A stretch of DNA of 32,000 bases. Source: Promethearchaeota archaeon (GTDB taxonomy: Archaea; Asgardarchaeota; Hermodarchaeia; Hermodarchaeales; Hermodarchaeaceae). A model generated the notes under the pieces. That model saw only the letters and a list, made by a program, of their open reading frames with translations, did not search any database and was not told where the DNA came from. This document shows positions 8,406 to 29,939 of this stretch, piece after piece. A program made the position numbers and the translations under genes. The DNA lies in contig JBHLMI010000005.1 in assembly GCA_048938295.1 (NCBI GenBank), positions 1-32,000 of the forward strand. Direction: 5' to 3'. Within the stretch, counting starts at the first letter, position 1. Each line of letters opens with the position of its first letter.

Positions 8406-11400
8406 GTGGTGAATACTGTGGTTAGCGCTGATCCCTCAATACTTCTATCTGATATAACGAAGCTTCCCGCAAAACTCAAGCGGAAGCTGGACGCCCATGG
8501 GATTAATGATCTTGCACATCTTTTTTTGGCAGAGACAAAATTGCAGGACGCAGTCACATTAGCGACCAATACGGATCTTACAATTCGTGGGGCTCTTGAA
8601 GCCCGACAGATTGCTCGACGTTATTTTGAAACCATTTTAGCAGATATAACCGCCAAGCGCAAGGTTGAATCATTAGGATTATTATGGAAGATTCATTGGT
8701 TGCTAGGAGTTGTACCTGAGGGAGATTTCCGAAATGAGCTCATTGCGCTTGAGGCTTCAGCGATTGCGGCAATTCTTGAAGCTTTAGAAGTCATAGAGGC
8801 TTCGACAGTTGAACAAATCCTCCAGATACTGCTTCACCGCCTGCTCATTATTCCAAAAGTGACAATGAAGGCGGAGTTGACTCAACTTGTGGAATTTGCC
8901 GAGAAGTTTCAGCGGAGCTCCTTACTCGCCTACCAAACAACCAAAGCAAAGGATTCGATGATGGCATTAGCCGATGAGGATGATCCCACAAAGCAGGTTG
9001 TACTGATACGAAAACTCACAACCCATTGGAAGACTCTTCATAAGACAATGCAAGACCGCAGCCAGGAACGGGGAACCGTAATTGTAACAGCACTGCAGTC
9101 AACTGATGATCTAAGAGTGTTAGATATCAGCGAACAGCATTTGCAAGAACGCCTTCAACAAACCATGTCAACAAAGAAGCTGCGGCAATCCCAATTAAAG
9201 CACATCACGACTGCAATGAATGCCATGTTTGAACTCCGCGATGCCTACTCCACCGCCAAACTAGCCACGCGCGCGAGCCAGATATGGTTTGAACTGGCAC
9301 AAGGCAAATCTAGCAAGGCACTCGGAGACGATTTATTACGCAGTCTACGATTTGCACGTACCGCGATTTTCAATTATCGTGCACTTGACGATTTGAACAG
9401 AGCTGTCAAGCAGATTAATCATATTATCCTCTTATTAGGTGAGATCCCATTCGAACCTGCTGAACCCCTTGAGGAGGCCGTTACAAGTGCCTTCCAAACG
9501 TTAATCCGAACTATCCCACTCCTGGACCGTCCTGCAGACCAAGAATTCATCCTTCGAATCTCAAAACGGCTAGGCATCATCCAAACAAGGTTGATGCCCA
9601 AAATCGCAGCGCCTGAAGCCCAGTCGGCTTTGGCAAAACTCCAAATCGAATTCCAACAAACAGCACTAAAACAGCTACAACACCTTGGTGCAACATCTGA
9701 GACCTATCAACCGCTCACCCAAGAGCTCATAGAAGCCCAACTGCGCCTTGTCGACGTTGCCCCAGAAGATGAAAAAGACATTCTGTTGAACGCAGCCGCT
9801 GAACATGCGACCCAACTAATACCTGAGATCCGCCAAACAACGGAAATCGACGAGAATAATCTTGAACTTATTTCCCGCCTTGTACAGCAACTTGCACAGC
9901 GACCAAAGGAAACTTTGAGTGATTCAGCACATCGCCTTAGGGAAAAAAGTCACCAACTCAACGAACAACTGTATTTCCAAACCAAAGACCCCCAAATACG
10001 GGCTCAACTCGCCCTGCAACTCTTACTCTCAAAGGTCTCCCCGGATCCTTCAGGGAGGGTAACCATAACCTTTCCTAGCAAAGATTTGGACAAACTCGAA
10101 GATTATGCGACAACAGCGATGTTAGCCCAGGTAAAAGGTCGACAACAAGTAAAAGCTTTGAAAGCGGGTTCACTGCTGGTCTGGATTCTAATACAGCGGT
10201 TAAGTGAAACAACAGAGAGCAAGGAGTTGCATAAATTAAGGGATGATGCACAAGAATTTGCAGAACAGACGCTTGCGTTTATGCCTCCATCAAACGAGTT
10301 GACTGGCGAGGCGTATCCTTTCGCCTTCCTCCTACTCCGTAATGTCAACGCCTTAGCTTACGAAGAGCAGCCCGCTGAGGAGACAAAATGGGAACAGCTG
10401 TTAACACAAAGTGAACAACTCGCCCAAACTCTGGCTAAAGCTGCAGCGCTGAAGAAGGACACACGCAACGGGGTTCTAGCTTTAAGTGCTGCAGGAACTG
10501 CTACAGCTAAACTCGCAACGCTTACCTCCGACCGCAGTTCACAAACTCGATTACTCCGGAGGGCGGCAACCCAGTTACAAAAAGCACTCGAAGTTGTAGC
10601 CAGTGATGAAGATTCTGCAGATATTGAGGCCGTTTTGTCTCAATATACTCAGCTCATGCGAGCCCGCTTATCTGTAACCCCAGCACTCTCTGCGCAGATT
10701 CCACTTTTTGAGGAGTGGAATCAAACATTCAAGGAGGGAATTGACGCGCTCCGAAGTAGAGGTGCTGATGATAGCGCAAACAAGCTGCAAGCGTCACTGA
10801 TACTAAACACGCAGGTACCGCTTGCATTCACCCGCCTGAGCAAAGAAAAAGCAACCCTTGATTCGGTTCGACGGAAGCTGCTAGAAATGCTCCGTGAAGT
10901 CGGTCAAATCGGGTCCGAGGATCAGGCCAAGTTGGCTCAGCAGCTAGAACGCCGTTGGACCTTCCAATTAGGTGACAACTCGCTATTGGACTCAGGATAT
11001 CGCCTTGAAGGTGGTGAAACTGGTTTCACGTTAGCTGATGAGCATTTTCGAATCAGTCTTCAGGTTGAGCTTGAAATTGCCATCGATGGTCGTGCTTTAC
11101 GGAAAATGACAACCTTTCCCTATCTTCGCCCATCAACAAAGTCCAACGATCTAATCTGGTACGACAAGAACCCCATCTTATCCAGTACTTATGAAAATGA
11201 CCAGCTCCAAACTTGGCTTACCCTTCTTGACCCTAGCGAGAATCATGTCTCTATTGGTTTCTGGCTAGTACCCTCCGAGGACACTAAGACCACTTTGACT
11301 TTACAAATTCTGGGCACCGAAGCCATGTCTCAGGGTGCGGAAGGGGTAATGGTTCAGCTTACTGGTTCACAATTAGAAATACCACGACAACCAGCAGTTG

Positions 11401-11495
11401 CGGAACGAAGGGATACAAAGGGGATCCTCATCTATGAGTCTAAACTTACAGTAGGATTTCCTGATACAATTCGCTTGAATCTACGAATTGCTTAA
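8406..11495 (+). CDS. Large hypothetical protein: N-terminal HhH-like domain, long helical region, beta-rich C-terminus
   Basis: 1029-aa uninterrupted ORF. The N-terminal ITKLPAKLKRKLDAHGINDLAHLFLA...ARQIAR resembles the RadA-N/HhH_5 pattern. L/A/Q/E-rich amphipathic helices follow to about aa 860, then alternating hydrophobic strands. Confidence 0.75.
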   Translation: MVNTVVSADPSILLSDITKLPAKLKRKLDAHGINDLAHLFLAETKLQDAVTLATNTDLTIRGALEARQIARRYFETILADITAKRKVESLGLLWKIHWLLGVVPEGDFRNELIALEASAIAAILEALEVIEASTVEQILQILLHRLLIIPKVTMKAELTQLVEFAEKFQRSSLLAYQTTKAKDSMMALADEDDPTKQVVLIRKLTTHWKTLHKTMQDRSQERGTVIVTALQSTDDLRVLDISEQHLQERLQQTMSTKKLRQSQLKHITTAMNAMFELRDAYSTAKLATRASQIWFELAQGKSSKALGDDLLRSLRFARTAIFNYRALDDLNRAVKQINHIILLLGEIPFEPAEPLEEAVTSAFQTLIRTIPLLDRPADQEFILRISKRLGIIQTRLMPKIAAPEAQSALAKLQIEFQQTALKQLQHLGATSETYQPLTQELIEAQLRLVDVAPEDEKDILLNAAAEHATQLIPEIRQTTEIDENNLELISRLVQQLAQRPKETLSDSAHRLREKSHQLNEQLYFQTKDPQIRAQLALQLLLSKVSPDPSGRVTITFPSKDLDKLEDYATTAMLAQVKGRQQVKALKAGSLLVWILIQRLSETTESKELHKLRDDAQEFAEQTLAFMPPSNELTGEAYPFAFLLLRNVNALAYEEQPAEETKWEQLLTQSEQLAQTLAKAAALKKDTRNGVLALSAAGTATAKLATLTSDRSSQTRLLRRAATQLQKALEVVASDEDSADIEAVLSQYTQLMRARLSVTPALSAQIPLFEEWNQTFKEGIDALRSRGADDSANKLQASLILNTQVPLAFTRLSKEKATLDSVRRKLLEMLREVGQIGSEDQAKLAQQLERRWTFQLGDNSLLDSGYRLEGGETGFTLADEHFRISLQVELEIAIDGRALRKMTTFPYLRPSTKSNDLIWYDKNPILSSTYENDQLQTWLTLLDPSENHVSIGFWLVPSEDTKTTLTLQILGTEAMSQGAEGVMVQLTGSQLEIPRQPAVAERRDTKGILIYESKLTVGFPDTIRLNLRIA

Positions 11496-22968: not shown

Positions 22969-23235
22969 TTGGTTTGTGTGGTCTACTCTAGCATTGTATG
23001 CCCTCGATGTGAGATGCTCAAACAGTATCTCCAAGATCACAATATTGGGCATTCAGTGCGAATGGTAGAGGAGCCAGATGCACAAGTCGATGCACTGATG
23101 TTGAATATCTATAGTACACCCGCACTGGTCATTGGCCAAAAAGTACTTCATCAAAAGGACCTTTTTGCGAATAATCAACTCGATGAGAACACTCTCTTAG
23201 CATTTCTGAGGAGTAACGGACATGGCCCGGAGTAG
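22969..23235 (+). CDS. Glutaredoxin/NrdH-like redoxin
   Basis: VYSSIVCPRCEMLKQYL (CxxC) and STPAL (cis-Pro). AGGAGG lies 8-14 nt upstream of the TTG start. Overlaps nrdD by 14 nt. Confidence 0.85.
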   Translation: MVCVVYSSIVCPRCEMLKQYLQDHNIGHSVRMVEEPDAQVDALMLNIYSTPALVIGQKVLHQKDLFANNQLDENTLLAFLRSNGHGPE

Positions 23236-25549
23236 GAGGAAACAAAAGGACCTCACCCAACGAATAGTATCGTTGGATGGATGGATTCAGGCAGTCCGAA
23301 AAGAGGAAGCAGGTATGCCTATGGTGCGTACCAGTGATTCCTTGATTCGAAGCTGGAACCGTCAAAAAATTGTTGAGGCCCTTGTCCGGGAAACGATGTT
23401 GGTTCAGGAACTTTTCAATATTCCTTCTATCACTGAGGAGGAAGCGCGGACAATTGCTGGTAAGGTTGAACAACGAATCCAGCAAATGCAACTTCCCTTC
23501 GTGAGCGCCCCCTTGATTCGTGAAATCCAAAACCAGGTTCTCCTTGAGAAAGCGAAACAGGATCCCAGATTCGCAGTATATCGAAATGCCTTGACTCGTG
23601 TTGGTGTTCCCATGTGGGACTTTAGTCACATCATCGGCGGAAATGGCTATGAAGCTCAAGAAAACGCCAACATGCAACCTAACCCAGAAACCATCCATAA
23701 AAAAGTTGCAGATCGGCTTTGTAAAGAAGCTTATCTTTTGATGCTTCCACCGGAGATTGCAGACGCCCACCTGGCGGGAGATATTCACATACATGACCTT
23801 GAATACTTTGGAACCCGACCTTTCTGTGCTGATTACGATGCACGATATTTCTTCAAATATGGGTTGATGTGTGATGGACTCGGTGAAAGGACAGCAGTTG
23901 CGAAACCAGCCACGTACCCCACGGTGGCTATCTTGCACCTCATCAAAGTCTTGGCAGCTGGTCAAACCAACAGTGCCGGAGGTCAAGGACTCTTCAATTT
24001 TAATGTATTCTTGGCGCCTTACCTCCAAGGAAAGTCTGCTCGAGAGATTGAACAGCTTGCTCAAACAATACTCTTCGAAGCCAACGAAACCTATGTCTCT
24101 CGGGGTGGACAATTAGTTTTTTCAAGCATTCAGCTTGAGTCTGGGATTCCAAAAATTTGGCGTGAGGCACCAGTAGTATATCGCGGAAGTGTTGGCCCTG
24201 AAACGTATGGAGACTTTGAGGATGAAGCACGAACCTTCATGACCGCACTCCTCCAAACATACCTTGAAGGCGATGCATGGGGTAAAATGTTCAGCTTCCC
24301 CAAACCGGAAATCCGACTACGCAGCGAATATTTTACCAAAAATGAACATGAAGAGAATATGTACTTAGCAGCAAAGCTCTCAGCGAAGTTTGGGAGCAGC
24401 TACTTCGACAACATCATTCCGGGATACCGGGATTCGGAAGGCCAGGATTGCTATCAATGCTGTGCTTTCCGTCTTGAGGAAGATATCGGGTCAGAAGAGT
24501 TTCAGCGAAAGATTATGTTTGAAGATGGGGCACATTTCTCAATGGGCGGTTTGCAAGTTGTCACCTTGAATTTACCACGCCTTGCCTATATTGCGAAAGG
24601 CAACGATGACCTCTTGTTTGAAGCTCTTCGAAAGCAGATGACAATCGCAAAACGAGTCTTAATGATTAAACGTAAATTCGTGAAGCATCAACTTGAGAGC
24701 GGGTTGCTTCCCTTTCTAAATCAACAACCACAGAGTAATGGACACAAGGCACCACCACTTTTCGATGTTCTCTCTGCATCACCGATTTTCGGTTTTGTGG
24801 GCATCAATGAAATGGTACAATATCATACTGGATCTCAATTACATGAGAGCCAAGAAGCCTTGAGGTTTGGCTTACGTGTTATTGCTGAGATGGAACACAT
24901 CCGGAAGATGTATTCGGAAGAAACTGGATTGCCGTTCGCAGTTGCCCGGACACCCGCCGAATCTTGTTCTACTCGTCTAGCTATCATGGATCTGTTACAT
25001 TATAACGGTGAGGCAAAGTCTGTAGTCAGAGGCGACATTTCTAATTGGCGTCAGCAACTGGAAGAGGCTGGACGCACGGCAGTGCCAGCGTATTATACTA
25101 ATGGATTCATGGTCAACTATGATTCGGAGATATCACTCGCCAAAAAAATAGCGATTGAGGAGAAAGCCTTTCCACTGTTGTCAGGTGGGAATATCTTTCA
25201 CGCATTTCTTGGGGAGGCATCACCAGACCCGGAATCATTAGCGAAATTAAATCAGCGGATTGCGATGAATACTCAGTTGGGTTATTACAGCTACACCCGT
25301 GACCTATCGGTATGTAAGCGGTGCCATCATACAGCTGGTGGATTACTCGAAACCTGTCCAAATTGTGGTCATACCGACATTGACTGGTTTAGTAGAATCA
25401 CTGGATATTACCAGAACGTATCCGGATGGAATGCTGGTAAACGTGAAGAATTGAAACGTCGATACCGGGTCCTAACCGGGGCAGCATCACCACCAGCAGG
25501 TGTGCATCCACTAGCCCCTCAACAACCTCCGGTTCATCAAGTAGATTAA
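23222..25549 (+). CDS. nrdD: Anaerobic (class III) ribonucleoside-triphosphate reductase with an ATP-cone
   Basis: ATP-cone (VRTS...WNRQKIVEAL), GDIHIHDL, RPFC, finger-loop YQCC, TPAES, YYTNG, Zn site CKRC/CPNC and glycyl-radical loop SRITGYY. No intein-sized insertion. Confidence 0.96.
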   Translation: MARSRRKQKDLTQRIVSLDGWIQAVRKEEAGMPMVRTSDSLIRSWNRQKIVEALVRETMLVQELFNIPSITEEEARTIAGKVEQRIQQMQLPFVSAPLIREIQNQVLLEKAKQDPRFAVYRNALTRVGVPMWDFSHIIGGNGYEAQENANMQPNPETIHKKVADRLCKEAYLLMLPPEIADAHLAGDIHIHDLEYFGTRPFCADYDARYFFKYGLMCDGLGERTAVAKPATYPTVAILHLIKVLAAGQTNSAGGQGLFNFNVFLAPYLQGKSAREIEQLAQTILFEANETYVSRGGQLVFSSIQLESGIPKIWREAPVVYRGSVGPETYGDFEDEARTFMTALLQTYLEGDAWGKMFSFPKPEIRLRSEYFTKNEHEENMYLAAKLSAKFGSSYFDNIIPGYRDSEGQDCYQCCAFRLEEDIGSEEFQRKIMFEDGAHFSMGGLQVVTLNLPRLAYIAKGNDDLLFEALRKQMTIAKRVLMIKRKFVKHQLESGLLPFLNQQPQSNGHKAPPLFDVLSASPIFGFVGINEMVQYHTGSQLHESQEALRFGLRVIAEMEHIRKMYSEETGLPFAVARTPAESCSTRLAIMDLLHYNGEAKSVVRGDISNWRQQLEEAGRTAVPAYYTNGFMVNYDSEISLAKKIAIEEKAFPLLSGGNIFHAFLGEASPDPESLAKLNQRIAMNTQLGYYSYTRDLSVCKRCHHTAGGLLETCPNCGHTDIDWFSRITGYYQNVSGWNAGKREELKRRYRVLTGAASPPAGVHPLAPQQPPVHQVD

Positions 25550-25659: not shown

Positions 25660-25932
25660 ATGTCGTCAGACGAAATGATATGCCAAAAGTGTGGCGGAAC
25701 AAGTTTTCGTCGCGTAACTGATGAATGGATGGTACGTTCAATCCCTTGGACCGCGGAAGGCATTATGCGCCAGTGTGAATCCTGTGGAGAGAAATACTTT
25801 GCCTGCCCTAACTGCCATAACTTACTTACACGGGTAAACATCACAAGAGTCCGGGCAATGAAAAGTACCTGTCCACATTGTGGATACCACAGCGCAACCA
25901 TTCAAAGTTGGCTACAAGAACAGGGGAAATAA
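25660..25932 (+). CDS. Small double zinc-ribbon protein
   Basis: Four CxxC pairs (CQKC, CESC, CPNC, CPHC) in 90 aa. Confidence 0.75.
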   Translation: MSSDEMICQKCGGTSFRRVTDEWMVRSIPWTAEGIMRQCESCGEKYFACPNCHNLLTRVNITRVRAMKSTCPHCGYHSATIQSWLQEQGK

Positions 25933-26018: not shown

Positions 26019-26804
26019 GTGTCAGAAAACAAGCAATCAACAAAAACCCCCATTGCAGAACCCTTCATTCAAATAGTGCCGGCAGGGAAAAAGGTGAAAT
26101 TAGCCAAAGAACCGATTCTCATAATAGGATTTCCCGGTCCCGGTTTGGTGGGGATGATATCTGCAGGTCGAATGATTGATGGGTTAGATATGAAGCTAAT
26201 CGCGGCAATCCGTTCACCACTTATTCCGCCAGTAACACCCTTCTTCGGTGGTATTCTTCGATTACCCATTCGCATTCATGCCAGTGATGATGGAAAATTA
26301 CTGACCGTCATTTCTGAATTCCCTTTACCCATGGAAACCATCTTCTTCGTGGCAAACCGTATTTTAGATTGGGCAACAGAAAATGGCGTCAAAAAGGTTG
26401 TCTGCATCGAAGGAATTGGTGTTGAAAAACGTACAGAGGCCCCTGAAGTCTTTGGTGCCGCAGAATCTCATCTTCTAGCTGAACTCGAGAAATTCGCGGT
26501 TCCTCGGGTTCAGAAAGGACTTGTTGCGGGGATTGCAGGAGCAATATTGAACGAATGCTTAATTCGAAATCTGGATGGATATGTACTACTAGCGACTGCA
26601 AATGCTGAAACCCCAGATCCAGAAGCTGCAGCAACAATGCTTTCTACGGTGAATCGGTTCTTAGACGTGGATGTGAGTATCCAACCATTAATTCAAAATC
26701 AGTCGGCCATCAAAGCTCAGCTCAATGATTTGGCAAAAGAAGCAAAGCGAGAAGAGCAGGCAGCTCAAGAGCATGGTTTTCGACCTATTCCCTTCTATGT
26801 TTAG
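26019..26804 (+). CDS. Proteasome assembly chaperone family protein (PAC2/PbaA-B type)
   Basis: IIGFPGPGLVGMI, LPIRIHA, GIAGAIL, PDPEAAA and LIQNQSAIKAQL. C-terminus PFYV contains a penultimate Tyr (HbYX-like). Confidence 0.88.
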   Translation: MSENKQSTKTPIAEPFIQIVPAGKKVKLAKEPILIIGFPGPGLVGMISAGRMIDGLDMKLIAAIRSPLIPPVTPFFGGILRLPIRIHASDDGKLLTVISEFPLPMETIFFVANRILDWATENGVKKVVCIEGIGVEKRTEAPEVFGAAESHLLAELEKFAVPRVQKGLVAGIAGAILNECLIRNLDGYVLLATANAETPDPEAAATMLSTVNRFLDVDVSIQPLIQNQSAIKAQLNDLAKEAKREEQAAQEHGFRPIPFYV

Positions 26805-26891: not shown

Positions 26892-27167
26892 TCATTCGTC
26901 TGGGAAATAATCGAGCATTAGCTCAAGCATTTCTTGGCGTTCGTCTTCGTCAACTTCGCGTTTCTTGCGCTTCTTATCCCCTTCATCTTCTTCCACGACT
27001 ACGATAAAGTCTCGTTCTGTGTGGCGGATGGGAAACTTAACCTTATAGCCTTGAGTTTCCTTTGTGGAAGATTTGTAACCACAAGAACATTTGAGTACTG
27101 TTTTCCCTTCTTTGTTTTTTTCCGGGCGTAATAAGCTTCCACATTTCGGGCAAAATTCTATAGTCAT
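26892..27167 (-). CDS. TFS/RpoM paralogue: N-terminal Zn ribbon and linker only, with an acidic tail
   Basis: EFCPKCGSLLRP...LKCSCGY, linker HTERDFIVVVEE. The C-terminal Zn ribbon with the ADEP catalytic hairpin is absent. Confidence 0.8.
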   Translation of the reverse strand: MTIEFCPKCGSLLRPEKNKEGKTVLKCSCGYKSSTKETQGYKVKFPIRHTERDFIVVVEEDEGDKKRKKREVDEDERQEMLELMLDYFPDE

Positions 27168-27235: not shown

Positions 27236-27886
27236 TTACGCCTTTTCTAAACTTTCGAGAATCTCTTTTGTCGCATCAACGAGGTGTGTGGTTGTGAGTT
27301 GTAGCGATTCTTTGGATTTTGCCTTTTTGATTGCTTGAACCAGAATTTGAGTCTGGAGCATACGGATTTCGCGCACCTGTTGTCCGTTTACACCTTCTGT
27401 GGCCTCAAAGAGAATTGAGTCGATTACTCCTGGCAGTATTTCCCAGTAGTATTGCGTTGCATCCTCTGTCATCCGTTTTTCCCAGCGACTTAATACGCGG
27501 CGAGTTAGGGGTTCTTTGGTGAACACTTTCCAGGTTTCATTTAACTTTATTATGCCATTTTCATCAAATCTTACCCGTAGTGTAACGCGTGTTTGTGATC
27601 TTTTTTTGGGTTTACCTTTCTTAATTTCCTTTACCTCTGAAATCAGTCCAAGCTCTTCTCGAGGGCTGAGCAGCCAAGACTTGGGTGTGATTTTGGTATC
27701 TGCAATTCCTTGGATTAGGTATGAAAATTGTCGTTTCCGGAGATCGGTTTTTGTTTCGCCCATACTTTCCCCGTCAATGAGCATTACCACTCGACCGCTC
27801 CGTTCATGGCGTTGTTCAACGCTTATAATTCGTACAGTGCCTTTAGGAGTCTCATCTTTAGATTTTGGCAGCGGCGTTTTAGACAC
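27236..27886 (-). CDS. Hypothetical protein; C-terminus resembles a histone fold or AAA+ lid domain
   Basis: 216-aa ORF. aa 121-210 align by eye to archaeal histone HMfA (see findings). Confidence 0.65.
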   Translation of the reverse strand: MSKTPLPKSKDETPKGTVRIISVEQRHERSGRVVMLIDGESMGETKTDLRKRQFSYLIQGIADTKITPKSWLLSPREELGLISEVKEIKKGKPKKRSQTRVTLRVRFDENGIIKLNETWKVFTKEPLTRRVLSRWEKRMTEDATQYYWEILPGVIDSILFEATEGVNGQQVREIRMLQTQILVQAIKKAKSKESLQLTTTHLVDATKEILESLEKA

Positions 27887-28007: not shown

Positions 28008-28415
28008 TTAGAAGTATAAATCAGCAGTTTCCAAGAGCTGTGGTTGTTCTGTGATGATAAATAGAAGTTTTACAATTGCATCTTTGTCTTCTTTGAGGAC
28101 TTGTAGGAATTGTTCTGGCCAGACACCTACGATATATGCTGTTTCGTTCCCACCTAATTCACCTAAGAAGGTCACTGTAAGTTTGGTGGCGGTAACAAGA
28201 AGAAGGAGAAATGGTGCCTGAAGTCGTTCGCCTTGTGGACCCTTCGTCAATTGGATGAGGTTAAGATGTACTGAATATGTTGATTGTTCTTTTATGCGGG
28301 ATTGCAGTTTTTGAAGCCAGCCTGATTGGACCTCATAATATTGTCCAAAAGCAGCCTGTAAATCAATGAATGTGTGTTTAGATCCTTCAGTGAGCTCTAC
28401 AGTCCATATATTCAT
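28008..28415 (-). CDS. Hypothetical protein
   Basis: 135-aa ORF filling the gap between genes on the same strand, with a normal globular composition. No motif recognised. Confidence 0.65.
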   Translation of the reverse strand: MNIWTVELTEGSKHTFIDLQAAFGQYYEVQSGWLQKLQSRIKEQSTYSVHLNLIQLTKGPQGERLQAPFLLLLVTATKLTVTFLGELGGNETAYIVGVWPEQFLQVLKEDKDAIVKLLFIITEQPQLLETADLYF

Positions 28416-28487: not shown

Positions 28488-29195
28488 TTAGAATCGAGTT
28501 ATAATCTTATGTTGCTGTGCATATTGCGCAATACGGGTTAATTCATCGGGAGTAAAAGCCCTGGTTAATGATGAATCTAGGACTGTCCTAGCCGGACGAA
28601 ACTGCTGCAGCACATAATGTTTTGATCCAACCCACTGACGTATCAAGTCAAGTTGTTCTAAGGTATCGATGAGGGAGGGTACAAGAGTTGTGCGAAATTC
28701 ATAGCTTATTTTTGATGATTTGAGGAGGTTGATAGTCTCGTTGATCTGCGCCAAGATAGCTCCGGTTGATTGAGTTACATTAGCATATTGGGTTTGATCT
28801 GGGACAGTCTTGAGGTCCACAGCGATGTAATCAACTAGGTTCGCCTCAAGTAATTCTTGGACAACGTCAGGTTTGGTACCGTTTGTCATCAATCCGAATT
28901 CTAAGCCGTTCTGCTTCGTCCATTCTGCGAGGGCTTTCAATGGAGCGGGTTGAAGTGTGGGTTCCCCCCCGGTAGCGATAACTCCATCTATGAGATACTG
29001 ATTCGGCTCCAGTTCAGGATAGAGTCGCTCTAACTCGATTTTGTACTGGTCGAGGAACTCAAGAAGTGGTCCATTAAAACAGAACCGGCATCGGAGGTTA
29101 CACCCGACGAAGAAAATTACACAGGAGACTTTCGAGGGCCAATCAGTTGTGCTTAGAAGAGGCTTTCCCGCGACATAAGCTTGCACACTAGCCAC
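28488..29195 (-). CDS. nrdG: Anaerobic RNR activating enzyme (radical SAM, glycyl-radical activase)
   Basis: DWPSKVSCVIFFVGCNLRCRFCFN (CxxxCxxC), TGGEPTLQ, TNGTKP, YIAVDLK and EFRTT. Confidence 0.88.
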   Translation of the reverse strand: MASVQAYVAGKPLLSTTDWPSKVSCVIFFVGCNLRCRFCFNGPLLEFLDQYKIELERLYPELEPNQYLIDGVIATGGEPTLQPAPLKALAEWTKQNGLEFGLMTNGTKPDVVQELLEANLVDYIAVDLKTVPDQTQYANVTQSTGAILAQINETINLLKSSKISYEFRTTLVPSLIDTLEQLDLIRQWVGSKHYVLQQFRPARTVLDSSLTRAFTPDELTRIAQYAQQHKIITRF

Positions 29196-29375
29196 CCAGT
29201 GCTTTTTTGAAGACGTGTTCGTGTAAAAGGAGAACCTTCCTCAATAAAATATCTCGTATTCAGCTGTTGTGCTAAGGATTTCATACACGTTGTTGTGTCT
29301 CTCCCTAAATTCGGCTTTTCAGCGATGGTGGAGACTATAAGAGTCTTTGAAATAAAAGGAGAGAGGCAAGCTTAC

Positions 29376-29939
29376 ATGATTGGACAGCAGGCTCCGCTAG
29401 TCAAAGTTATCATTGCAGGGGCAAGTCAGGTGGGAAAAACAAGTTTGATACACAATTATGTCTTCGAAGAATTCATCGAGGTGTCTCCAACAATTGGAAT
29501 AAATTTTGCTCAAAAAATCGGATTGGGAGTCAAAGGACCATTAAATCTAAGTATTTGGGATTTAAGCGGTGAAAACCGGTTTCAGTTTCTGATGCCGCAG
29601 TTTTGTTCTGGTGCAATTGGAGTCATTTTGGTGTGTGATTTGACCAGACCAGCAACATTGGAGGAGGCTATTGTTTGGCTTGATATAGTTCATCAGTGTG
29701 CCCATCCTTCCCACCATAAAGCCGTTATTCTAGCAGGAAATAAAGCAGATCTAATGCCCCGAATTACAGACACAGAGGTTCACCAATTTTGTAAAGGTTA
29801 TGAAATCGCTGGATACATCGAGTGTTCAGCAAAAACGGGTCGGAATGTAGATCAGTTGTTTGAAAGGTTATGTAGCGTTATTCAAAACAGTCTCCCAGAA
29901 TTCTGTCAGCCTCCTAGACAATATACACAGGTTTTGTGA
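29376..29939 (+). CDS. Rab-like small GTPase (second)
   Basis: G1 GASQVGKTS, G2 SPTIG, G3 WDLSGE, G4 NKAD, G5 ECSAK. ATG 29376 follows the purine-rich AGGAGAGAGG; the ORF-track start at 29295 is likely overextended. Confidence 0.9.
   Translation: MIGQQAPLVKVIIAGASQVGKTSLIHNYVFEEFIEVSPTIGINFAQKIGLGVKGPLNLSIWDLSGENRFQFLMPQFCSGAIGVILVCDLTRPATLEEAIVWLDIVHQCAHPSHHKAVILAGNKADLMPRITDTEVHQFCKGYEIAGYIECSAKTGRNVDQLFERLCSVIQNSLPEFCQPPRQYTQVL

Follow-up and report, generated by a model that had tools for sequence, protein, structure and literature searches.

The window analysed here is a stretch of 32,000 nucleotides (nt) of a Promethearchaeota archaeon (contig JBHLMI010000005.1, positions 1 to 32,000), and the subject of this analysis is one of its minus-strand genes, P0001, together with the two small genes that flank it. 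The product of P0001 is predicted to consist of two domains, a basic N-terminal beta-barrel that resembles domain 2 of EF-Tu and a C-terminal helical domain that closes on itself with the topology of an AAA+ lid. The gene and its parts, with the domain boundaries taken from structure prediction, are the following.

27236..27886, minus strand: complete P0001 gene, 216 codons, GTG start at 27886, stop codon included (from the list of open reading frames and the translation)
27521..27841, minus strand: predicted N-terminal beta-barrel (residues 16-122), basic, EF-Tu-domain-2-like, with a predicted local distance difference test score (pLDDT) of 85-93 in AlphaFold2
27410..27502, minus strand: predicted first helix-strand-helix motif (residues 129-159), with a helix at 129-137, M139 in an invariant 'W..RM' loop and a helix at 141-159
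27386..27409, minus strand: predicted hinge (residues 160-167, FEATEGVN; family consensus FEPxxGIN, followed by G168), a loop in both models
27242..27385, minus strand: predicted second helix-strand-helix motif (residues 168-215), with a helix at 168-191, L197 in a conserved 'LTSTxL' loop and a helix at 199-215

Judged by sequence comparison P0001 is a real gene, since it has 48 homologues in which length and start are conserved. These relatives, found by a word-indexed search of 5.8 billion proteins, are nearly all 213-248 amino acids (aa) long and 47-93% identical to P0001, none of them carries a Pfam domain or an informative name, and those that start with ATG begin at the same alignment column as the GTG of P0001. 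The plus-strand frames that overlap the gene are shadows. The protein is basic overall (isoelectric point (pI) 9.8) and belongs to no meaningful family in Pfam, NCBIfam, PADLOC or PHROGs. An initial annotation of this DNA had singled out positions 27257-27526, which correspond to residues 121-210 of the frame, as a histone fold split in two; the strings it quoted indeed lie where it placed them, at residues 126, 163 and 184, and 68 nt separate the stop codon of P0001 from a downstream TFS-like gene (26892-27167, minus strand), as it had stated.

The C-terminal domain was modelled with AlphaFold2 from a 44-sequence alignment, both within the full-length protein (pLDDT 85.1, predicted template modelling score 0.71) and separately (pLDDT 89.4, predicted template modelling score 0.81), with secondary structure assigned by DSSP on both models and conservation counted over the 44 members. 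In the separate model the chain closes on itself as a monomer, and in both models the same helices (129-137, 141-159, 168-191 and 199-215) and isolated bridge residues (M139 and L197) form two helix-strand-helix motifs, the strands of which pair within one chain. The proposal that paired helix-strand-helix motifs are split by a hinge is therefore supported by both predictions. The 8-residue Pro/Gly/Asn hinge interrupts what would be the long alpha2 of a histone: a single long uninterrupted helix of the histone type was found in neither model, the region being split into helices 141-159 and 168-191, and with the chain folding back at the break in this counterpart of the long central helix, no handshake dimer would be needed to bury the core. 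The helix breakers of the hinge are kept in many relatives (P162 in 26/44, G165 in 24/44, N167 in 27/44 and G168 in 39/44). Conservation within the domain is highest in the bridge loops, with W135 and R138 present in 44/44, M139 in 41/44 and L197, T198, S199 and T200 in 40-41/44. Alanines are prominent in the second motif, where A185 and A189 are invariant and A205 occurs in 43 of the 44; the last helix also carries T206. The C-terminal ~90 aa are thus predicted with high confidence to form a closed single-chain double helix-strand-helix bundle with a parallel beta-bridge, with the topology of an AAA+ lid and without the ATPase core.

The absence of an ATPase domain, already pointed out in the initial annotation, was confirmed, as P0001 has no Walker A/B motif and no AAA Pfam match. 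Without an ATPase the domain is not, strictly speaking, a lid. A further likeness that had been suggested, between a G..VRE turn and the start of a sensor-2 helix, did not hold: the arginine in question, R172, is K, R, N, E or S in 12, 11, 8, 6 and 4 of the 44 members, respectively, and has no ATPase to serve. The arginine that is conserved, R175 (38/44), lies one turn further into the helix.

An exhaustive comparison (VIA-align) of the modelled C-terminal domain with 48,161 PDB representatives returned AAA+ lids for 35 of the top 50 matches and single-chain histone-fold pairs for 7, among them HMk, the Sos histone domain, viral doublets and TAF/SAGA, so that these two groups together make up 42 of the 50, at Z-scores (Z) that are only moderate (5.3-8.9). 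MCM lids lead the list (Z 7.1-8.9), followed by lids of Rpt, RuvBL, ComM, ORC/Cdc6, FtsH, ATAD1, MuB, BchI, Lon, katanin, NSF and dynein (those of Rpt, RuvBL, ORC/Cdc6, FtsH, Lon, BchI and MuB at Z 5.4-6.9). HMk (1f1e) matches at Z 7.0 over 81 aa. In a second look at the top 1000 of Foldseek, lids occupied 48 of the 50 leading rows, and Rpt/PAN lids covered the entire domain (68 aa, root-mean-square deviation (rmsd) 2.5-3.0, Z about 7). Structure matches in the ESM Atlas included Mg_chelatase_C (template modelling (TM) score 0.61/0.77), Cdc6_lid, the LonB lid and H2B, with lid families at TM 0.57-0.62 by query; a feature-based search of the Atlas gave a best score of 0.77, which is below the useful level. 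A PDB sequence search gave only a weak likeness to eL6 (E 0.09-0.4), which was set aside as driven by a Lys-rich stretch, the aligned region being a barrel in eL6 and helical in our model.

Lids and histone pairs would both be expected in such a list, because AAA+ C-domains have exactly this closed fold of two helix-strand-helix motifs, which can be superposed on one half of a histone dimer (PMC1847821). According to Alva et al. (PMC1847821) the only conserved residues that lids and histones have in common are alanines located where the helices of the second motif cross, and A185, A189 and A205 of P0001 match that pattern. The near-exclusive enrichment for one structural class, albeit obtained with a predicted model, is hard to explain by chance. 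This bears on the possibility that the likeness to lids and histones is that of a generic small four-helix bundle, or an artefact of modelling, and says nothing specific about ancestry or function. The best Foldseek E-value of only 0.3, a Z of at most 8.9 of a size common for helical models, the insignificance of all profile comparisons (see below) and the appearance of unrelated helical proteins (sigma factors, the NrdD ATP-cone) in the exhaustive list agree with such a bundle. We nevertheless consider it quite unlikely, as 42 of the 50 top matches fall in a single structural class that forms a small share of the PDB, whole-domain superpositions reach an rmsd of 1.9-3.0, and the specific helix-strand-helix motif is matched by the beta-bridge predicted here, by the helix breakers of the hinge and by the invariant alanines (PMC1847821).

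The initial annotation rested on an alignment by eye of the two halves with HMfA. When the two gap-free blocks were scored with BLOSUM62 against the HMfA strings they gave 31 and 16 (9/37 and 6/24 identities), and the placement chosen by eye proved to be the best collinear two-block placement of HMfA on the real C-terminal domain. The summed score of 47 was reached by none of 2000 shuffles (p~0.001 for the first half alone, p=0.14 for the second half alone). As shuffling destroys helical periodicity, the frames of the genome itself were also scanned, and two unrelated frames among the 3041 of at least 120 aa scored at least 47, so that a by-eye match of this strength is to be expected a couple of times per genome. 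The top two-block score of the genome, 50 with a 36-residue insert, belongs to a 1029-aa open reading frame at 8406-11495 (plus strand), which serves as a chance-level comparator. The split match is thus present, and its register is reproducible by hhalign, but it is statistically indistinguishable from chance.

For hhalign, an alignment of the C-terminal domain of P0001 was compared with alignments collected by genome searches with Pfam models, which comprised 20 sequences for Asgard histones, 23 for MCM lids, 23 for AAA_lid_3 and 25 for Cdc6 lids. Probabilities were 2.5% for histones (P=0.018), 6.0% for Cdc6 lids (P=0.006), 0.6% for MCM lids and 0.4% for AAA_lid_3, against 2.7-60.7% for lid-lid and lid-histone pairs built identically and 0.2-1.5% for reversed-sequence controls. 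The alignment with histones uses the register proposed by eye for the first motif, which corresponds to alpha1-L1-alpha2, and at a permissive setting it spans both motifs with one gap of exactly 23 residues, in agreement with the separation first reported. The second motif is matched, without a shift in register, to its counterpart in Cdc6 lids and, in histones, to the last part of alpha2 together with L2 and alpha3. No Pfam histone or lid match was obtained even at E<=10, either with the whole protein or with residues 115-216, and hidden Markov models (HMMs) of the P0001 domains retrieved neither the histone nor the lids of the genome itself from its 12,309 frames; a canonical histone is encoded elsewhere in the same genome. 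Homology to histones or lids at the level of sequence was therefore not borne out by Pfam or hhalign. That neither histone nor AAA-lid profiles score significantly had been named in the initial annotation as one half of what would speak against it, and since no profile score is significant this is what was found. Of the suggestion of a monomeric, un-swapped histone-like or free AAA-lid domain, the closed fold with lid topology and without an ATPase core is retained, as a prediction, and the sequence homology is not; a role in chromatin found no support either.

By any criterion that we tested P0001 is not a histone. It could still be a genuine histone derivative, in which an insertion of ~23 residues at a hinge in alpha2 turned the swapped dimer back into a closed monomer that would bind DNA through an L1-L2-like bridge and serve in chromatin or transcription. 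HMfA and Asgard histones align with the two halves in the same register, interrupted once by a gap of 23 residues, by eye and independently by hhalign, and not one of the shuffles reached the two-block score; the conserved residues R138, T140 and T198-T200 of the bridge loops are reminiscent of the 'R.S' and 'RKT' DNA contacts of histones, histone doublets occur among the structural matches, and the protein is basic. Such a derivation is highly improbable in our view, given an hhalign probability that lies below that of Cdc6 lids, the lack of any Pfam histone match, the failure of the C-terminal HMM to retrieve the genome's own histone, two unrelated frames that match HMfA equally well, and a match list in which lids outnumber histone folds by 35 to 7. 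No closed or lid-like relative of histones was mentioned in recent archaeal and Asgard histone surveys, as judged by a text search.

When 1.84 billion cluster representatives were scanned exhaustively with HMMER, one full-length representative and two fragments of the family were found, and no longer or fused forms. Among 301 genomes sampled across the phylum the family was present in 16 of the 18 from the GTDB family of the window (in two genera) and in none of the 282 from 29 other families of the Asgard phylum; the depositors' labels of the relatives vary (Promethearchaeota, Thor-, Odin-, Hod- or Hermodarchaeota). Neither domain has a paralogue in the genome, as domain HMMs found none among all 12,309 frames. 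The P0001 family is a young, narrowly spread and well-conserved orphan of one Asgard lineage. Being confined to a single GTDB family it is far younger than histones and is not an ancestral intermediate between lids and histones, as had been suggested; its C-terminal domain is at best a recent derivative of a lid or a histone.

In the transition from lid to histone Alva et al. are said to have proposed a three-dimensional domain swap. If the C-terminal domain of P0001 were a natural un-swapped counterpart truly related to histones, for instance through a 23-residue hinge insertion that reversed the swap, it would be a living test case of that transition and might still bind DNA via its bridge loops, a prospect to which we attach an even smaller probability than to histone derivation in general.

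The sequence that precedes the helical domain had been described as a leader of about 120 aa, rich in beta-strands and lysine. It is predicted to be all-beta and contains 27 K+R (pI 10.1). The barrel modelled for it superposes on PF0907 (4pgo_A) at Z 9.3 and rmsd 2.3 over 80 of 90 residues, on Pbp11 (7anu_B) at Z 7.7 and on domain 2 of eRF3, Hbs1, SelB and EF-Tu at Z 6.5-7.8, aEF1A being matched as well (all by VIA-align). Membership of GTP_EFTU_D2 is not evident at the sequence level, as there was no Pfam match and hhalign gave 0.3% for the profile of the N-terminal domain against 24 Asgard D2 segments. Foldseek also listed dUTPase and dCTP deaminase (probability 0.5-0.99), which were rejected at TM 0.22-0.35 and rmsd 8-12 and are absent from the exhaustive top 50. 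The strongest conservation in P0001 is found in this barrel ('VEQRHERSGR', 'DGESMGE', R50, R76, R104 and E117), with V23, Q25-R29 'QRHER', D38, E40, G43, E44 and R50 as its most conserved polar loops, and the main functional site is therefore probably located there.

In every locus examined P0001 is the third of four genes in the order nrdG-like radical-SAM gene, P0003, P0001, P0002, and on the opposite strand lie a PAC2 gene, a gene for a 90-aa Cys-rich protein, nrdD and a glutaredoxin-like gene. The direct neighbours of P0001 are:

28008..28415, minus strand: P0003, a 135-aa acidic orphan (pI 4.9), immediately upstream of P0001 on the same strand and always adjacent
26892..27167, minus strand: P0002, a 91-aa TFS-like protein with an N-terminal Zn ribbon only and an acidic tail, downstream of P0001

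The family is confined to a narrow clade throughout which the entire region is syntenic, so that gene order says little about function. P0003 has no match in Pfam, NCBIfam, PADLOC or PHROGs and is limited to the same archaeal family as P0001. A complex prediction for P0001 with P0003 gave a score of 0.00 and a mark of 0.32, which is not evidence either way. ESM Atlas matches of P0003 were set aside, the Atlas's own model being poor (pLDDT 0.41).

P0002 matches Pfam Zn_ribbon_RPB9 (1.1e-7) and, over model positions 1-59 of 101, TIGR01384 with 39.6 bits against a cut-off of 64.75. It has the N-ribbon only (C6, C9, C27 and C29) and not the catalytic C-terminal Zn ribbon with an acidic hairpin that TFS has in addition. 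Other features of this protein are a strand with the conserved pattern 'H(S/T)P(R/K)E.I.VVE' and a helical tail that is acidic ('EDER.E..K..LEFY'). From its sequence it looks like a conserved and unstudied Asgard paralogue of the TFS/Rpb9 N-ribbon that is predicted to be unable to stimulate cleavage. A match to P0002 was found in 142 of 151 sampled genomes of the phylum, usually twice, as a full-length orthologue (~45% identity) alongside true TFS. Full-length orthologues occur across most families of the phylum without P0001, next to genes for RtcB, DUF1015, prenyltransferase-like, B12-binding and HTH proteins, and neither a relative of P0001 or P0003 nor a consistent partner was found beside 14 orthologues from other families.

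This distribution bears on the possible role of P0001 as an RNA-polymerase-associated factor that acts with P0002. The two genes lie on the same strand with a gap of 36-97 nt in every locus of the family, and P0002 has the RNA-polymerase-binding N-ribbon of TFS/Rpb9 together with an acidic tail, to which a basic partner could bind. Nevertheless, P0002 is widespread without P0001 and with unrelated neighbours, so that only this lineage shows the adjacency; the suspected functional connection with the TFS paralogue was not borne out, and we regard a joint role as very unlikely.

The first gene of the cluster raises another possibility, namely that P0001 is an enzyme or small-molecule binder of nucleotide metabolism that works with NrdG/NrdD and has its active site in the invariant polar loops of the barrel. 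A same-strand nrdG-like gene precedes it in every locus examined and nrdD is nearby, the loops carry a set of invariant charged residues (Q25, R26, H27, E28, R29, D38, E40, E44, R50, R76, R104 and E117), and dUTPase and dCTP deaminase appeared in the Foldseek list. We judge this to be quite unlikely, since the dUTPase superpositions are poor and barrels of the EF-Tu-D2 type dominate the exhaustive top 50, no enzyme family matches by sequence, and synteny within a single family is weak evidence.

Several other genes were observed in this region. The nrdD gene (class III ribonucleotide reductase, 23222-25549, plus strand) and the radical-SAM activase-like gene (28488-29195, minus strand) lie ~3 kb apart on opposite strands with five genes between them and do not form an operon. 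A protein of 90 aa with four CxxC pairs (double zinc-ribbon-like) is encoded at 25660-25932 (plus strand), in the interval that separates nrdD from the PAC2 gene, and related contigs have a 90-aa gene at the same position. Divergent from the nrdG-like gene is a gene for a small Arf/Ras/Roc-type GTPase (29295-29939, plus strand), and further along in related contigs a Roadblock/LC7 gene is found, typical of the eukaryote-like signalling content of Asgard archaea.

The account that we favour, with about an even chance of being right, is that P0001 is a lineage-specific, basic two-domain protein in which a barrel of the EF-Tu-D2 type is joined to a free, closed, lid-like domain and which serves as a non-enzymatic binding module. 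Its basic barrel, the loops of which are invariant and rich in Arg, His and Glu, would bind nucleic acid, most likely RNA, by analogy with Pbp11, a tRNA-binding protein that also binds the AAA+ protein PAN (PMC9540759). The lid-like domain would dock a protein partner or a phosphate backbone via the conserved face of its bridge (W135, R138 and M139; L197-T200), in the manner of the equivalent bridges in histones, Clp N-domains and Pol epsilon B. Bridges of histones contact DNA, those of Clp N-domains contact ClpS, and free C-domains such as that of Pol epsilon B dock (PMC1847821, PMC2528186). By these analogies the function of P0001 is probably the binding of nucleic acid and of a partner. The lid-like domain itself may have been captured from an AAA+ protein, may have arisen by the opening of a histone, or may owe its fold to convergence.

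Several observations weigh against this account. Foldseek gave no significant match for the C-terminal domain (best E 0.3; the rows were RuvBL and Lon lids and histone fusions), with nothing at E<=0.001 in the PDB for either the full model or the C-terminal domain, nor among the BFVD viral models; a Z of 7-9 falls in a range that is common for helical domains according to the notes of the aligner; and the structural evidence comes entirely from predicted models. The profile-profile scores given above, for histones, for all three lid families and for EF-Tu D2, are all insignificant. In P0001 itself the C-terminal domain, with a pI of 6.5, is not basic, although the family median is 9.8, and the many invariant charged residues in the loops of the barrel could equally mark the active site of an enzyme.

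It is unlikely that P0001 serves an AAA+ machine (PAN/proteasome, Cdc48, MCM or Orc/Cdc6) as an accessory subunit or as a regulator, with the lid-like domain packed on the ring and the barrel bringing in an RNA or protein substrate, although several observations point that way: the closest structural matches are the lids of MCM and Rpt/PAN, the nearest analogue of the barrel binds both PAN and tRNA (PMC9540759), a gene for a PAC2-family proteasome assembly chaperone adjoins the cluster on the other strand (26019-26804), and free C-domain folds serve as docking modules (PMC2528186). The synteny, however, is common to all members of a narrow clade and carries little functional weight, and a protein may resemble a lid without binding to an ATPase.

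P0001 can be compared with several known systems. What it shares with AAA+ lids (MCM, Rpt/PAN, RuvBL, Orc1/Cdc6, ChlI/BchI) is a predicted bundle of four helices in which a beta-bridge forms within the chain and a hinge separates helix 2 from helix 3; alanines are found where the helices of the second motif cross, and the whole domain superposes on lids at Z 7-8.9. Unlike in these lids the domain is preceded by a beta-barrel and not by a P-loop ATPase core, there is no conserved sensor-2 arginine, and the profile similarity to MCM_lid, AAA_lid_3 and Cdc6_lid is insignificant (0.4-6%). Subunit B of Pol epsilon, which carries a free AAA+ C-domain fold at its N-terminus, has made it known since 2008 that such folds occur outside AAA+ proteins (PMC2528186). 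P0001 resembles it in having a charged-residue-rich, C-domain-like bundle outside an ATPase that is fused to a beta-rich domain; it differs in that the lid-like domain is C-terminal, in that the partner is an EF-Tu-D2-like barrel instead of an OB fold and a phosphoesterase, in its occurrence in one Asgard family and not in all eukaryotes, and in the lack of a sequence relationship detectable with Pfam.

With the archaeal histones HMfA/HMfB and HMk (1f1e) P0001 shares the same two motifs in the same order and a weak in-register similarity of both halves, and its model superposes on half of the HMk pseudodimer (Z 7.0, 81 aa), whereas its central helix is broken by a hinge, its chain is self-closing, a 120-aa barrel is fused to it and no profile match is found. 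Finally, the barrel superposes on PF0907/Pbp11 of the Thermococcales (4pgo, 1xe1, 7anu; Z 9.3), and these proteins are basic as well, but P0001 has two domains, ~15% identity and no profile similarity to them, Pbp11 being a single-domain 11-kDa protein. The wider importance is limited by the one-family distribution, and nothing direct follows about the origin of histones or of eukaryotic chromatin. The family does offer a compact natural system for the question of how the length of the hinge decides between a closed bundle and a swapped dimer of the histone type. What is new here compared with the known systems is the P0001 family itself, the predicted fusion to a barrel of the translation-factor type and the weak in-register echo of the histone sequence, and if the models are right this would be, after Pol epsilon B, the second independent AAA+ C-domain fold outside an ATPase, in a new architecture.

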